Positions 3,282 to 41,637 of a DNA stretch of 61,624 nucleotides are shown in pieces. Under the pieces are notes generated by a model. It saw nothing but the letters and a program-made list of their open reading frames with translations, was not told the origin of the DNA and did no database searches. The DNA lies in the NCBI GenBank assembly GCA_964350785.1, contig CAYGMD010000003.1, forward strand, positions 1-61,624, written 5' to 3'. Position numbers and translations under genes: made by a program. Position 1 is the stretch's first letter. Each line of letters begins with the position of its first letter. Origin of the DNA: an uncultured Acidobacterium sp. Its GTDB lineage: Bacteria; Acidobacteriota; Vicinamibacteria; Vicinamibacterales; UBA2999.

Positions 3282-5959
3282 TCGCCGCTCTGCTGCAACA
3301 GCTTCGCCACCAGTGCCGTCCAGCCGGTCTGGTGGCTGGCGCCCAGGCCGGTACCGTTATCGCCGTGGAAGTACTCGTGAAAGAGGACCAGGTCGCGCCA
3401 GTGCGGATCCTCCTGGAACTTCGCAACGCCGTCGTGGACGGCGCGGCCGCCCTCGGGCGCCTGGAGGAACAGCCGCGACAGCCGGCGCGACAGCTCCGCC
3501 GCCACCTCACCAAGTGTCAGCATCTGCCCAGACCCCGTCGGGCACTCGACCCGGTAGTCGGCGCCCAGCGAGTGGTGGAACTTCTGCAGCGACTCGATGA
3601 TCAAATAGTTCACCGGCAGCCAGATCGGCCCGCGCCAGTTGGAGTTGCCGCCGAACAGTCCGGTCGTCGATTCGGCCGGCTCGTAGCCGACGGTGTGCGA
3701 GACGCCGTCGACATCCAGTGAATACGGGTGGTCCTTGTGCACGCGCGACAGCGCGCGGATGCCGAACGGCGACAGAAACTCTTCCTCATCGAGCATCACG
3801 CGCAGCACGCGTCGCAGCCGGTCGGGGTTGACGATGGAGAGGAGCATGCGGCCCTTGTGCCCTGGCTCCATGCAGGCACAACCCTCGGTGAGCGCCGGCC
3901 GATGCTCCAGGAACCACGACAGGCGCCGCGCGAATGAGGGCAGCCGTGCCATCGCCTCCGCTTCGACCGACGCGACGGCGAACAGGGGAATCAGCCCCAC
4001 CATCGATCGCACTTTAAGCGGAAAGTGCGTGCAATCCGGAAAGTGCAGCACGTCGTAGTAAAAGCCGTCTTCCTCGTCCCACATCTGCATGCCGCTGTGG
4101 CCGATGTGGTTCATGGCATTGACGATGTAAATGAAGTGCTCACCAAACTTGGTGGCGACATCCTCATACACCGGATCTTCGCGGGCCAACTCGAGGGCAA
4201 TGGTCAACAGGTTGAGCGTGTACATCGCCATCCAGGCAGTGCCGTCCGACTGCTCGAGCCGGCCGCCCGTCGGCAGCGGCTGGCTGCGGTCGAACACCCC
4301 GATGTTGTCGAGGCCGAGAAACCCGCCCTCGAAAATGTTGATGCCGTCCTGGTCCTTGCGGTTCACCCACCACGTGAAGTTGAGCAACAGCTTGTGGAAC
4401 ACGCGCTCCAGGAACGCGCGGTCGCCCTGGCCGGCCCGCTTCTCCTCGATCTTGTAGACACGCCACGCCGCCCAGGCGTGCACGGGCGGGTTGACGTCGC
4501 CAAGCGCCCACTCGTACGCGGGTAGCTGTCCGTTGGGATGCATGTACCACTCGCGCAGCAACAGGATCAGCTGTTCCTTGGCGAAGTCCGAGTCCACCAG
4601 CGCCAGCGGCACGCAGTGGAAGGCGAGATCCCACGCCGCGTACCACGGGTACTCCCATTTGTCCGGCATCGACACGACATCTTCGTTGTGCAGGTGGGTC
4701 CACTGATGGTTGCGGCCGTTCAGGCGCGGCCGCGGCGGCGGCGGCCCCGCTGGGTCGCCGGCCAGCCACTCGTCGACCACGTAGTGGTAGTACTGCTTCG
4801 ACCACAACAGCCCGGCAAAAGCCTGACGCATGACGCGCTGTGCGTCCGGCGATAGCGATGCTGGCGTGACCGTGGCAAAGAACTCGTCGGCCTCGGCCTG
4901 GCGCGTGGCGAAGGTCGCCTCGAAGTCACCGAAGGCACTGCCTTCCCGCTCGAAGACGCGATCGGTGAGACGCAAGCGGCAGGCGAACGAGGCGCCCGGC
5001 GCGATCGTGGTCGTGTAGCGCGCCGCCGCCTTGGTCCCCGCGCGAGCCGGGTTCACGGCTTCGACGCGGCCCTGCACCACGGCGTCGTGGAAGGCGTCCT
5101 TGACGTAAGGCGAGGCGTTCGCCGTGCCGAATAGCCGCTCGGCGTTGGTGTCGTTCTCGGTGAACAGCAACTCGGGGTCGGCGTCGCAGTACAGCCGCCG
5201 CCGGCCGTAGTTTGGCTCGTCCAGGACTACTGTCTGATCGTCGTCGGGCGACACCGCGAGCGACGGCCGCGTACCCGGCACACCCCAGGACCACGTGTTG
5301 CGAAACCAGACTGTCGGTAGCAGGTGCAGTGGCGTCGCGTCGGGGCCGCGGTTGATCGCCGTGATCTTGATGAGAATGTCCTCGACATCGCCCTTGGCAT
5401 ACTCAACAAACACGTCGCAGTAGCGGTTGTCCTCGAACACCCCGGTGTCAAGCAGTTCAAATTCCGGCTGGTCGCGCCCGCGCCGGCGATTTTCCTCCAC
5501 GAGTTGGGTGTAGGGAAACGAGGCCTGCGGGTACTTGTACAGAAACTTCATGTACGAGTGCGTCGGCGTGCTGTCGAGGTGAAAGTAGTACTCCTTGACG
5601 TCCTCGCCGTGGTTGCCCTCGTTGCCGGTGAGGCCGAAGAGCCGTTCCTTGAGAATGGGGTCGTGCCCGTTCCAGAGCGCCAGACCAAAACAGATCCGCT
5701 GGTGACGATCGCAGATTCCTGCCAGGCCATCCTCGTTCCATCGATAGGCACGCGACCGCGCGTGATCGTGCGGAAAGGCCTCCCAGGCCGTGCCCTGCGG
5801 GCTGTAGTCTTCGCGCACGGTGCCCCACGCGCGGTCGCTCACATAGGGGCCCCACCGCTTCCAATGCGCTGCGCGCTCCCGTGCCTCCCGCAAGCGGCGA
5901 TGTTCCGCGGTCGCATCGCCCGCGGAGGACGGAGGCGGCGAGGGCTGGGGAAACGTCAC
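3278..5959 (-). CDS. MGH1-like/GH63 glucosidase
   Basis: 893 aa; [62 protein letters not shown]. Confidence 0.9.
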
Positions 5960-6003
5960 AGATCGACGTTATCGCATCGGCCACGCGGTGGGATCGGGGG
6001 GCG

Positions 6004-6019
6004 TGTGAGTCACCTCACT
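6004..6019. promoter_or_regulatory. CRP/FNR-type box TGTGA-gtcacc-TCACT
   Basis: One mismatch to the CRP consensus; upstream of the GH63 start, which has TAACGT 6 nt before its GTG. Confidence 0.55.
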
Positions 6020-39919: not shown

Positions 39920-39929
39920 GAGGGGACAG

Positions 39930-40814
39930 GTGGCCATCGCCATGTCATCGATGCGAATGCCAGCCCGAGCGGGCGTCGGCCTGAGACTGCCGCACATCGA
40001 AGAGGTGATGGCCACCCGGCCGTCTGCCGGGTGGTTCGAGATCCATCCGGAGAACTTCGTGGCCAATCCCCATGCAACCGAGCTCTTGCAGGATCTGGCG
40101 CAGCAGTATCCCGTCTCCGTTCACACCGTCGGCCTGTCAGTTGGCAGCGTGGGCGGAATCGATCGCGGACACCTCGCCCGCGTGCGCGCGCTCATTGATC
40201 TCATCGATCCGATCCTGGTGTCCGGTCACCTCGCGTGGTCGACGCACAAGGGCGAGTACCTCAATGATCTTCTGCCGCTGCCGTATGACCGTGAGACCTT
40301 GGACACCGTCGCGCGGCACCTGCACGAGGTCCAGGACGGACTCGGCCGACCGTACTTGCTCGAAAACCCATCGAGTTACGTCGGCTTTGCAGGTTCGACG
40401 ATGACAGAGATCCAATTCCTGAACGAACTGGTGGATCGCACCGGCTGTCGGTTGCTGTGCGACGTCAGCAACGTGTATTTGAGCGGTCGCAACATGGGGT
40501 ACGACGCGCGCGGCTACATCGATGGACTGCCTGCCGACGCCATCCGTGAGTTACATCTCGGAGGATTCACACCGGAAGACGACGAGGCGACGCCTGGCGG
40601 CGAAGTGCTCATCGACACCCACGCAACTCCCGTCGCGGAACCCGCATGGGATCTCTATGCCTATGCGATCCGTCGGTTCGGCCCAAGACCGACGCTGATC
40701 GAGTGGGACAACGAGATCCCGGCGCTGGGGGTGCTGCTCGACCAGGCGGAGAGAGCCAACGCCGTCGCGCACGAAGCAGTTACAGGCGAGGCACACCGTG
40801 TTGCCGCTCGCTGA
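39930..40814 (+). CDS. bufB: DUF692 MNIO bufferin maturase
   Basis: EIHPENF, SGHLAWS, LLENPS, LCDVSN, ELHLGG, IDTH, LIEWD. Confidence 0.92.
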   Translation: MAIAMSSMRMPARAGVGLRLPHIEEVMATRPSAGWFEIHPENFVANPHATELLQDLAQQYPVSVHTVGLSVGSVGGIDRGHLARVRALIDLIDPILVSGHLAWSTHKGEYLNDLLPLPYDRETLDTVARHLHEVQDGLGRPYLLENPSSYVGFAGSTMTEIQFLNELVDRTGCRLLCDVSNVYLSGRNMGYDARGYIDGLPADAIRELHLGGFTPEDDEATPGGEVLIDTHATPVAEPAWDLYAYAIRRFGPRPTLIEWDNEIPALGVLLDQAERANAVAHEAVTGEAHRVAAR

Positions 40815-41637
40815 CATTCAACAACGCATCCGCGACGCGGTCGTCGCTGGCGACCTCAGCGCCGCCGCACCCCTTTTGATCGGCGGCGTGGATGCCACCA
40901 GGCGCCTCGCGATCCATCGCCGCCATTATGAAACAAGCCTCGTGGCCGCGTTGTTGGGCCGATTTCCCGCCACCGGCTGGCTCATGGGAACCGCGACCAT
41001 CGAATCCGCCGCTCGCGTATTTGTGCGCGCACAGCCGCCCTCGGCGCCGTGTATCGCCGAGTACGGCCAGGACTTCCCGAAGTTCCTTGCGGAATGGCCT
41101 GGGTGTGAACGCGTCCCCTATCTGCAGGCGTTCGCGGATCTTGATTGGCACCTGGGTCGACTCGCGGTGGCGGGAGACCTGCCTGCGGTCACACGGACCA
41201 GCATCGCCGCCGTTCCGCCCGCTCAATTGGCGGACACGACGCTGACGATTCAGGCCGGCATCCACTACCTCGCGGCGTCCCGCCCCATCGATGACTTGAT
41301 CATGCTCTATCTCGCTGACGACACGCCGGATCGCATCGAGTTGCCGGAGGCCGACGTGTGGGTCGAGGTCCGTGGCGCACGGGGAGCGTTTCGCTTCGCG
41401 CGGCTCACACCGGCCACCTTCGCCTTCCGGGTCGCCCTTGCGAGTGGGTTGTCGATCGGCGATTCGGCAGAGCGTGCGTGGGCAGTGGATACTTCCTTTG
41501 ATCCGGGCGCGGCGCTCGCGCTGCTGGTGGATGCGGGCCTCGTCGTCGCCATCGACGGCCGCGAGATGAGCGCGGCATGGCCTGATGAGCTACGCCCTCG
41601 ACCTCTACGCCTCGCCACAACGCCACGTATCCGGTGA
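40798..41637 (+). CDS. bufC: DUF2063 (HvfC/BufC-like) partner protein
   Basis: RLAIHRRHY, YGQDFPKFL, ADLDW; follows DUF692. Confidence 0.85.
   Translation: MLPLADIQQRIRDAVVAGDLSAAAPLLIGGVDATRRLAIHRRHYETSLVAALLGRFPATGWLMGTATIESAARVFVRAQPPSAPCIAEYGQDFPKFLAEWPGCERVPYLQAFADLDWHLGRLAVAGDLPAVTRTSIAAVPPAQLADTTLTIQAGIHYLAASRPIDDLIMLYLADDTPDRIELPEADVWVEVRGARGAFRFARLTPATFAFRVALASGLSIGDSAERAWAVDTSFDPGAALALLVDAGLVVAIDGREMSAAWPDELRPRPLRLATTPRIR

Follow-up and report, generated by a model that had tools for sequence, protein, structure and literature searches.

E. coli CRP activates promoters in class I and class II arrangements and recognizes the palindrome TGTGA-N6-TCACA. The Streptomyces pair SigR-RsrA is a thiol-oxidative stress system. 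In Caulobacter, SigF-NrsF controls the bufferin operons, and the SigF site is GTAACC-N16-CGAA (PMC11626156, PMC3511200). Selenium-dependent switching between selenocysteine (Sec) and cysteine (Cys) isoenzymes occurs in Methanococcus maripaludis (PMC11097638). Here we describe a 61,624-nt stretch of DNA, contig C3 of a 5.08 Mb genome with ~67% G+C from a groundwater population of Vicinamibacterales, that shares features with each of these systems. We refer to the whole stretch as the window. It encodes a CRP/FNR-family regulator fused to a thioredoxin-like protein (Trx-CRP), two extracytoplasmic function (ECF) sigma factors paired with anti-sigma factors, four selenoproteins, a Cys redoxin and two loci for bufferins, a type of copper-binding peptide. 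This gene list was first drawn up in a sequence-only reading of the window, and was borne out by Pfam and NCBIfam. The same reading proposed a CRP-versus-ECF switch between selenoenzymes and a Cys/bufferin stress programme.

We consider it probable that the window carries a thiol/selenol redox island that is mosaic, has spread horizontally and is controlled by three regulons in layers, and not by one toggle; a cascade with feed-forward elements appears to fit the arrangement of motifs better than opposition. In the first layer, the local CRP/FNR regulator, co-transcribed with a thioredoxin-like protein and here fused to it, would bind TGTGA-N6-TCACA. It would activate its own leaderless promoter, and those of a Sec-redoxin gene and ECF1, from about -41.5 (class II), and would help from about -60 (class I) at a DUF3179 selenoprotein gene and some GTAAC promoters. 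In the second layer, ECF1 would be held by a small thiol-based zinc anti-sigma factor, and ECF1, a paralogue encoded on another contig (C20), or both, would read GTAAC-N16/17-GAC ahead of genes for PagL, a thioredoxin, a small membrane protein, a TonB-type receptor, a PD40 protein and both bufferin precursors. In the third layer, ECF2, with its transmembrane Cys/His anti-sigma factor, would read GGAATAT-N15-GCGTT and drive expression of a TlpA-like protein and the Cys redoxin; together with DsbD, whose gene follows a copy of this promoter elsewhere in the genome, these would form an envelope disulfide-reducing branch. We infer the pairing of protein with motif, the sign of regulation and the signals from what was observed, namely the motifs, how enriched and how conserved they are, and which genes are linked.

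Like E. coli CRP, the local regulator retains an Arg-Glu pair in its recognition helix and is associated with TGTGA-N6-TCACA sites, with ~41.5 nt between site centre and inferred start at three promoters, and ~60 nt at others. It differs in having a local, redox- and selenium-themed regulon rather than a global carbon regulon, a phosphate-binding motif that reads R-D-H rather than R-S/T-A, a thioredoxin-like partner to which it is fused, and apparently leaderless transcripts. As in SigR-RsrA, ECF1 is paired with a small soluble HxxxCxxC zinc anti-sigma factor (ZAS1), and the putative outputs include thioredoxin-type and disulfide-reductase proteins. In contrast to SigR, ECF1 has a CRP-type box ahead of its gene, which replaces or supplements autoregulation; TIGR03988, the RsrA model, gives a weak match (25.9 bits, below the 62.5 cut-off), and the promoter is GTAAC-N16/17-GAC.

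The ECF control of bufferins put forward in the sequence-only reading has its precedent in Caulobacter SigF. In both cases, genes for a DUF2282 precursor, an MNIO protein and a DUF2063 protein lie behind an ECF-type promoter with a GTAAC -35 element and a 16-nt spacer. Here, however, the -10 element is GACT or ACTCA rather than CGAA, the anti-sigma factor is a small zinc anti-sigma (ZAS) protein rather than the DUF1109 protein NrsF, and the gene for the likely bufferin sigma factor lies apart from the bufferin genes. A DoxX-type fourth gene like that of Caulobacter buf1 was not found at the bufferin locus; DoxX itself is reported to be dispensable (PMC11626156). As in M. maripaludis, Sec and Cys isoforms of one enzyme family lie behind different promoters. 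The differences are that the host is a bacterium, that the regulators are of the CRP and ECF types, that selenium is here no more than a possible signal, and that the Cys form is most closely related to a third paralogue, a Sec one, encoded on another contig of the genome.

CRP-type boxes and the thioredoxin-linked regulator

Genes were called with a codon model trained on the window's own genome (G000), and checked with Pfam and NCBIfam. Other G-numbers denote genomes of relatives, L-numbers orthologous loci and C-numbers contigs; G041 (the same as G112) is the same-genus genome used for syntenic comparison. With one mismatch or fewer allowed, TGTGANNNNNNTCACA has 10 sites in the window, against 1.11 expected, and none of 100 shuffles reached 10. 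Perfect copies of the consensus, TGTGA-N6-TCACA, number only seven in the genome. All seven are intergenic, and four of them fall inside the 61.6 kb window; among 20 one-mismatch boxes beyond the window, 15 fall in called open reading frames (ORFs), as chance sites would. The sequence-only reading named four of the ten window sites (6789, 9521, 19079 and 33632), all of which are present, and missed the other six, of which the perfect box before ECF1 (15072) matters most. The boxes, the regulator and its neighbours are as follows.

1579–1594: CRP-type box, centre 24.5 nt upstream of TGTAACG-N16-GACT (1563–1537, minus strand) of the PD40 gene
6004–6019: CRP-type box with one mismatch, centre 52 nt before GTG 5959 of a GH63-like glycosidase gene
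6789–6804: perfect box between the gene for AhpD-like selenoprotein 1 (minus) and the DedA/VTT gene (plus)
9521–9536: CRP-type box AGTGAGGCGCGTCACA, predicted autoregulatory site of trx-crp, centre 41.5 nt before ATG 9570
10654–10669: perfect box at the start of a truncated histidine-kinase ORF
15072–15087: perfect box, 21 nt before the -10 element GAGAAT (15109–15114) of ECF1, class II geometry, divergent from pagL
19079–19094: CRP-type box TGTGTTACGGATCACA, between the ECF2 operon (minus) and the DUF3179 selenoprotein gene (plus)
30341: CRP-type box
33245–33260: box with one mismatch, second box upstream of the Sec-redoxin gene
33632–33647: perfect box, 22 nt before the -10 element TATGAT (33670–33675), followed by ATG 33683, class II geometry
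6887–7681, plus strand: DedA/VTT-domain membrane protein (Pfam; synteny in L021, L022 and G156)
7687–9210, minus strand: pyridine nucleotide-disulfide oxidoreductase (CxxxxC), divergent from trx-crp (Pfam)
9218–9448: N-terminal fragment of a second reductase copy
9570–10547, plus strand: Trx-CRP, a thioredoxin-like domain (CIGC) fused to a cyclic nucleotide-binding domain and HTH_Crp (Pfam, NCBIfam)

Trx-CRP matches PF00027 (E 3.4e-19), PF13545 (E 7.4e-17) and PF00325, with the effector domain followed by a C-terminal Crp-type helix-turn-helix. With respect to cAMP as a candidate ligand, the sequence reads FGEL...PRDH, with R-D-H where CRP has R-S-A, and the NCBIfam equivalog models all score well short of their cut-offs. 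Translation could alternatively begin at 9543. The box before trx-crp is found at five orthologous loci (L021, L022, L023, L024 and, with one mismatch, L025), and its centre is exactly 41.5 nt before the ATG or GTG that opens the thioredoxin ORF in L021, L022 and L024 as well as in the window. At 41.5 nt to the start codon, a class II distance would be combined with a leaderless transcript. We predict that trx-crp is autoregulated through the 9521 box.

Boxes before other genes are also conserved. The 6789 box, which the sequence-only reading gave to the AhpD-like selenoprotein, is kept upstream of DedA in L021 and L022, where the selenoprotein gene does not adjoin, and the DedA box is kept in G041 as well; DedA is a likely CRP target. 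The disulfide oxidoreductase, which adjoins CRP also in L022 (84%) and G156 (64%), is a further likely target. The ECF1 box and its -10 element are kept in three genomes (those of the window, L021 and L022), and the spacer between them has diverged. Before the DUF3179 selenoprotein gene, a promoter scan found TTGACT-N16-CATACT (19112–19139), which places the 19079 box ~60 nt upstream of the implied start; in G041 this box is kept as TGTGTTCCAGATCACA, between the genes for TlpA and the DUF3179 selenoprotein. The Sec-redoxin promoter was scanned for a sigma-70 -35 element and none was found; the predicted transcript from ATG 33683 is leaderless or nearly so. Boxes cluster around the CRP orthologue in G041 (6 of 30 boxes within 14 kb), and also in G385 and G410. 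The orthologues themselves are patchily distributed: none was found in 24 genomes of the same genus, and 22 of 401 genomes from the order carry one.

Could these boxes be read by a global CRP/FNR paralogue, for example a respiratory one, with the local regulator being one of that paralogue's targets or binding something else? The genome has many CRP/FNR candidates, and nuoA and cytochrome c operons are preceded by boxes that share these half-sites and are kept in G041. However, the island boxes are GC-rich in the spacer, unlike the respiratory set, they co-occur with the local orthologue across genomes, and the box of the regulator lies at a fixed distance from its own start codon. We regard reading by a global paralogue as very unlikely. 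The respiratory boxes, which have AT-rich spacers (C68:7967, C77:15649, C260:2566 and C99:12180, before cytochrome c operons, nuoA and similar genes), are probably a separate regulon served by another regulator; one of them adjoins another CRP/FNR gene.

The fusion itself has a traceable origin. In L021–L024 and G036, trx and crp are separate ORFs, and TATACT-N7-ATG precedes crp. All five orthologous loci that keep two ORFs retain this motif ahead of the CRP part, and it is conserved inside Trx-CRP (region 9790–9870), where ATG 9864 suggests that a separate, leaderless, CRP-only product could be made. On this comparison, the window fusion arose by loss of the trx stop codon. An assembly error was considered and rejected, since the identical sequence is present in contigs from two independent studies. 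G061 and G157 may hold independent fusions, with open frames of 352 and at least 285 residues, respectively.

Two classes of ECF promoter

TGTAACG occurs nine times in the window, against 2.4 expected, and these are 9 of 91 copies genome-wide. The longer pattern TGTAAC-N17/18-GAC[CT] has 13 matches in the genome, six of them in the window, which is 1.2% of the genome, and all six are intergenic; three control patterns for this promoter have no match in the window. With the bufA1 site (TACT at -10) and the copy upstream of ECF2 included, there are eight GTAAC-type sites, and the class consensus is GTAAC(G/A)-N16/17-GAC(T/C). The two motif sets described in the sequence-only reading are present and concentrated, but what it took for one ECF set comprises two distinct classes, GTAAC and GGAATAT. 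The genes associated with GTAAC promoters, and ECF1 with its anti-sigma factor, are listed here.

2–1501, minus strand: PD40 beta-propeller gene, composite promoter 1537–1594, GTAAC element 1563–1537
2683–3172, plus strand: GTAAC promoter and thioredoxin-like gene (at 2750), a paralogue of the Trx part of Trx-CRP
14273–15023, minus strand: pagL-like lipid A deacylase gene (Pfam) with promoter GTAACA-N16-GACC (15023–14997), kept in G041
15126–15773, plus strand: ECF1 sigma factor (PF04542, PF08281; Pfam, NCBIfam)
15776–16006, plus strand: ZAS1, 76-residue zinc anti-sigma factor, HxxxCxxC (zf-HC2)
25848–26577, plus strand: GTAAC promoter TGTAACG-N16-TACTCA (25848), orphan precursor gene bufA1 (25900–26205), truncated MNIO gene (26218–26577)
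35032–38114, plus strand: GTAAC promoter (35032–35059) and gene for a TonB-dependent-receptor-like outer membrane protein
38767–39300, plus strand: small membrane protein without a Pfam match, GTAAC promoter at 38718
39653–41637, plus strand: bufA2 (39653–39919), bufB/MNIO (39930–40814) and bufC/DUF2063 (40798–41637), GTAAC promoter at 39561

The trio of CRP, ECF1 and ZAS1 is conserved in G000, G041, L021, G305 and G156, and forms a single operon in G156. GTAAC-type auto-promoters lie directly upstream of the ECF1 orthologues in G305 and G156, and further copies precede neighbouring genes for TlpA, a reductase and a DUF6789 protein in these two genomes. The pagL gene, divergent from ECF1, has a GTAAC promoter in G000 and G041, and the promoter of the 38767 homologue is also kept in G041. 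In three genomes, a CRP box lies upstream of a GTAAC element (1579/1563 in the window, L145 in G410 and L186 in G156). The spacing is 24.5 nt in the window and 21.5–22.5 nt in the other two, and such spacing is as expected for a class I helper.

A further TGTAACG lies inside the ECF1 coding region (15672–15697), ~100 nt before ZAS1, at the conserved residues C-N-V-L-E-I-S-D-T. At the same position, L021, L022, G305 and G156 have a full GTAAC-N17-GAC match. This internal site reflects either coding constraint only or an internal promoter for the anti-sigma gene.

The bufA2 locus matches PF10048 (DUF2282), PF05114 (E 7.8e-94) and PF09836. The bufA promoters of three distant genomes (G148, G200 and G137) read TGTAA(C/T)-N18-ACT(C/T)A. 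The ECF paralogue on C20 (10228–10791), which has its own small ZAS, is 86% identical to the sigma factor encoded next to bufABC in G148, and each is preceded by a GTAAG-N17-CACTCAT auto-promoter. The C20 paralogue is likely to be the bufferin sigma factor. ECF1 and the C20 paralogue share an insert and the sigma-4 helix VLLHR(G/A)R, and may overlap in specificity. On C20 (9477–11050), the sigma gene is divergent from a paralogue of the 38767 gene, with GTAA-type promoters in both directions.

The second class belongs to the ECF2 operon, the components of which are given below.

16018–18959, minus strand: ECF2 operon (ECF2 sigma, ZAS-TM anti-sigma, TlpA-like, Cys redoxin)
18414–18959, minus strand: ECF2 sigma factor (PF04542, PF08281)
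17770–18417, minus strand: ZAS-TM anti-sigma factor (zf-HC2)
17149–17748, minus strand: TlpA-like protein (Pfam)
16018–17100, minus strand: Cys-type redoxin with DsbD_N-like domain, WCPYC, last gene of the operon
18996–19022, minus strand: ECF2 auto-promoter GGAATAT-N15-GCGTTC

ECF1 and ECF2 both consist of just sigma-2 and sigma-4 regions, each with an anti-sigma gene downstream in the same transcription unit. Orthologues of anti-sigma-2, which mark the ECF2 module, were found in 7 of 400 genomes of the order, and in six of these the module includes a Cys redoxin. GGAAT(A/T)T-N15-GCGTT is present in all seven orthologous modules, as a divergent pair between the sigma operon and the redoxin gene. 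We considered ECF2 as a reader of GTAAC, since CGTAACA-N16-GACT lies upstream of its operon, and rejected this because the orthologous modules share a different auto-promoter. The window's genome has only one other intergenic ECF2-type promoter, before a DsbD gene on C65 (8121–9974). From these two promoters, ECF2 seems to head a small regulon for disulfide reduction in the envelope, which comprises DsbD, TlpA and redoxin.

Selenocysteine and cysteine enzymes

The window has four genes with in-frame UGA codons.

6015–6599, minus strand: AhpD-like selenoprotein 1 (CMD family, peroxidase-related), CHYU, UGA 6354–6356
19194–20216, plus strand: DUF3179 selenoprotein, TWUPLC, UGA 19491–19493
20229–20771, minus strand: AhpD-like selenoprotein 2, CHYU, UGA 20553–20555; the G041 orthologue also has a UGA
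33683–34831, plus strand: Sec-redoxin (AhpC/TSA with a DsbD_N-like C-terminal domain), WUPYC, UGA 33911–33913

The genome encodes tRNA-Sec, and SelB scores above its family cut-off. The UGA codons align with catalytic Cys residues of homologues, and the Cys paralogue of the redoxin has WCPYC in place of WUPYC. For AhpD-like selenoprotein 1 the Pfam CMD match spans the UGA, TIGR01926 scores 147.7 bits, and a hairpin follows the UGA; for the DUF3179 selenoprotein a full-model Pfam match runs across the UGA (E 2.9e-81). Hairpins of 6–7 bp, with G/U in the loop, start 10–17 nt after each UGA, with folding z-scores of -1.1 to +0.6 that are not significant. The selenoprotein families of the window are among those already listed as known (PMC13188914). 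AhpD-like selenoprotein 2 has no CRP box nearby.

How far does the association of CRP boxes with Sec genes extend? We surveyed 29 Sec-redoxin orthologues from other genomes of the order, including 23 Sec and 5 Cys forms. A perfect box was found upstream of only 2 of the 23 Sec forms, those of G385 and G410, and a general rule that Sec genes carry CRP boxes was rejected on this count. Among 20 genomes tested, the same two are the only ones with a close CRP orthologue (60–70% identity), which lies 4–7 kb from the redoxin gene; G320 has only a distant homologue (~46% identity). The box is therefore present in both genomes with the orthologue and in none of the 18 others (Fisher p = 0.005), indicating that it follows the regulator and not selenocysteine as such. 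By this co-occurrence, the Sec-redoxin is a recurrent predicted CRP target where the regulator exists.

Gene order points in the same direction. Orthologues of the DUF3179 selenoprotein gene adjoin CRP orthologues in four other genomes (G036, G041, G253 and G156), making it, as judged from gene order, a recurrent neighbour of the regulator. In G036, the Sec-redoxin orthologue is directly upstream of trx-crp, with redoxin, trx and crp contiguous; the contig ends 87 nt upstream of the redoxin gene. In G410 and G385, the CRP orthologue is within a selenium cluster (L143, G410:C40:42001–62000; L144, G385:C76), in which the Sec-redoxin orthologue heads a selA-selB operon. Perfect boxes lie in the promoter region that this operon shares with a divergent operon for a Germane lipoprotein, a class V aminotransferase, a Se/S-carrier protein and a split YedE transporter. 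The selB contig of the window's own genome (C252) was searched for boxes with up to two mismatches and has none. Thus, the link between CRP and sel genes holds in G385 and G410 and not in the window's genome.

Of eight redoxins linked to ECF2 and anti-sigma-2, seven are Cys forms. Without this linkage, the 11 orthologues from the same subfamily are all Sec forms (Fisher p = 1.6e-4). The placement of a Cys version in the stress sigma operon is, on these counts, a real pattern. Most of the Cys cases belong to one family, so the number of independent Sec-to-Cys events is small. The arrangement of a Sec redoxin under a CRP box and a Cys form in the ECF2 operon, described in the sequence-only reading, is as stated there, but the two are not nearest relatives: the Cys redoxin is closest to a third, Sec-type paralogue on C78 (64% identity), and not to the CRP-linked Sec-redoxin. 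On C65 (18614–20215), a GTAAC-type promoter precedes the gene for a long Cys-form DUF3179 protein (YCTLC); with it, DUF3179 would join the redoxins as a family with Sec and Cys members under promoters of different class.

It is at this point that the proposed toggle can be weighed. In that proposal, selenoenzymes are on and ECF2 is blocked when CRP is on, and metal or envelope stress frees ECF2 to induce the Cys redoxin, the bufferins, the TonB receptor, PagL and the thioredoxin. The tie of the Sec-redoxin to a class II CRP promoter and of the Cys redoxin to the ECF2 operon holds, as does the Cys bias of ECF2-linked redoxins. Conservation in orthologous promoters, on which the proposal depended, is found for the regulator's own box, for the boxes of DedA, the DUF3179 selenoprotein and ECF1, and for the ECF2 motif. 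In addition, bufABC adjoins the ECF2 module in three of seven other genomes, and the 19079 box overlaps a GTAACA-N16-GACT match (19088–19062, minus strand) that faces the ECF2 operon; this is the only site at which the proposed antagonism might apply.

A strict switch has partial support only, and a simple opposition between CRP and ECF is not supported. The conserved auto-promoter of ECF2 (19022–18996) lies ~65–90 nt from the 19079 box, and the inferred ECF2 start ~97 nt from it, which leaves ECF2's own promoter clear of the overlap that was claimed; the GTAACA match that is overlapped is not conserved in G041, a genome without ECF2. The promoters of the bufferin, TonB receptor, pagL and thioredoxin genes, which the proposal gave to ECF2, match the auto-promoters of ECF1 orthologues or the C20 paralogue instead. 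CRP boxes precede ECF1, in a class II position conserved in three genomes, and occupy an activating position before GTAAC promoters, and CRP, ECF1 and ZAS1 stay together as a trio. Finally, the Cys bias may represent one or two evolutionary events. We regard the toggle as unlikely.

Mosaic structure and significance of the island

Relative to the syntenic locus in G041, the island has gained five blocks: Trx-GH63-AhpD1, histidine kinase-zwf-gnd, the ECF2 operon, bufA1, and ROK-Sec-redoxin-TonB-bufA2. It also holds remnants of a DsbD gene (33377–33540) and of a reductase gene (9218–9448), and a truncated MNIO gene. The DsbD remnant is a low-scoring ORF upstream of the Sec-redoxin gene that corresponds to a DsbD C-terminus and is near-identical to part of C65:8160–9974; by this identity, it marks a recombination scar. 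The block that begins with the 10654 box and the histidine-kinase ORF continues, on the other strand, with zwf and a gnd-like gene (region 10654–14000), and might supply NADPH to the disulfide reductase.

These blocks and remnants are also what would be expected if there were no integrated circuit, the motif density being a by-product of mosaic assembly in which each block brought its own promoter and only redox function is shared. However, the inserted blocks still bear boxes or promoters of the same two resident classes, and the concentration of both motifs in so small a part of the genome is hard to explain without selection for common control. We consider the absence of a circuit quite unlikely, and favour the layered arrangement of CRP, ECF1 and ECF2.

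Several observations weigh against the layered arrangement. The GTAAC class is assigned to ECF1 because of other genomes and not because of the window, where ECF1 has no GTAAC auto-promoter and has a CRP box instead; moreover, ECF1 and the C20 paralogue are not distinguishable as readers of the bufferin promoters. The link between box and Sec-redoxin is confined to a minority of regulator-bearing genomes, with 21 of the 23 sampled Sec forms lacking a box. The boxes at 6004, 10654 and 30341 are without conservation support, that at 30341 being absent from G041. There were 16 candidate CRP/FNR-family members in the genome at first look, and these paralogues, together with the respiratory box set, make cross-recognition possible. 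Lastly, RNA-seq runs were searched, and none contained this sequence.

What is the functional significance of a thioredoxin-partnered CRP in this setting? Tentatively, it could be a dedicated regulator of the selenium-utilization trait in Vicinamibacterales, sensing selenium or selenol/thiol status and activating selenoprotein genes and, in some genomes, also selA-selB and the YedE/Se-carrier uptake genes; the Sec-to-Cys converted redoxin under ECF2 would then be a selenium-independent backup during envelope or metal stress. Little is known of the transcriptional control of bacterial selenoprotein genes, and a literature search for a CRP-type regulator tied to such genes found none. If the proposal is true, the genes for bacterial selenoprotein synthesis would have their first proposed transcriptional regulator.

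Our analysis provides a candidate regulator, its operator, a promoter geometry and a conserved target set: Sec-redoxin, the DUF3179 selenoprotein and DedA, and the selA-selB and YedE operons in two genomes. Although the organisms are uncultured, the predictions lend themselves to tests in vitro or with a heterologous host. Three promoter codes are told apart within one island, and a likely sigma factor is identified for the bufferin genes of Acidobacteriota. The analysis also shows a lineage where the Cys version of an enzyme that is otherwise a selenoprotein has its place in a stress sigma operon.

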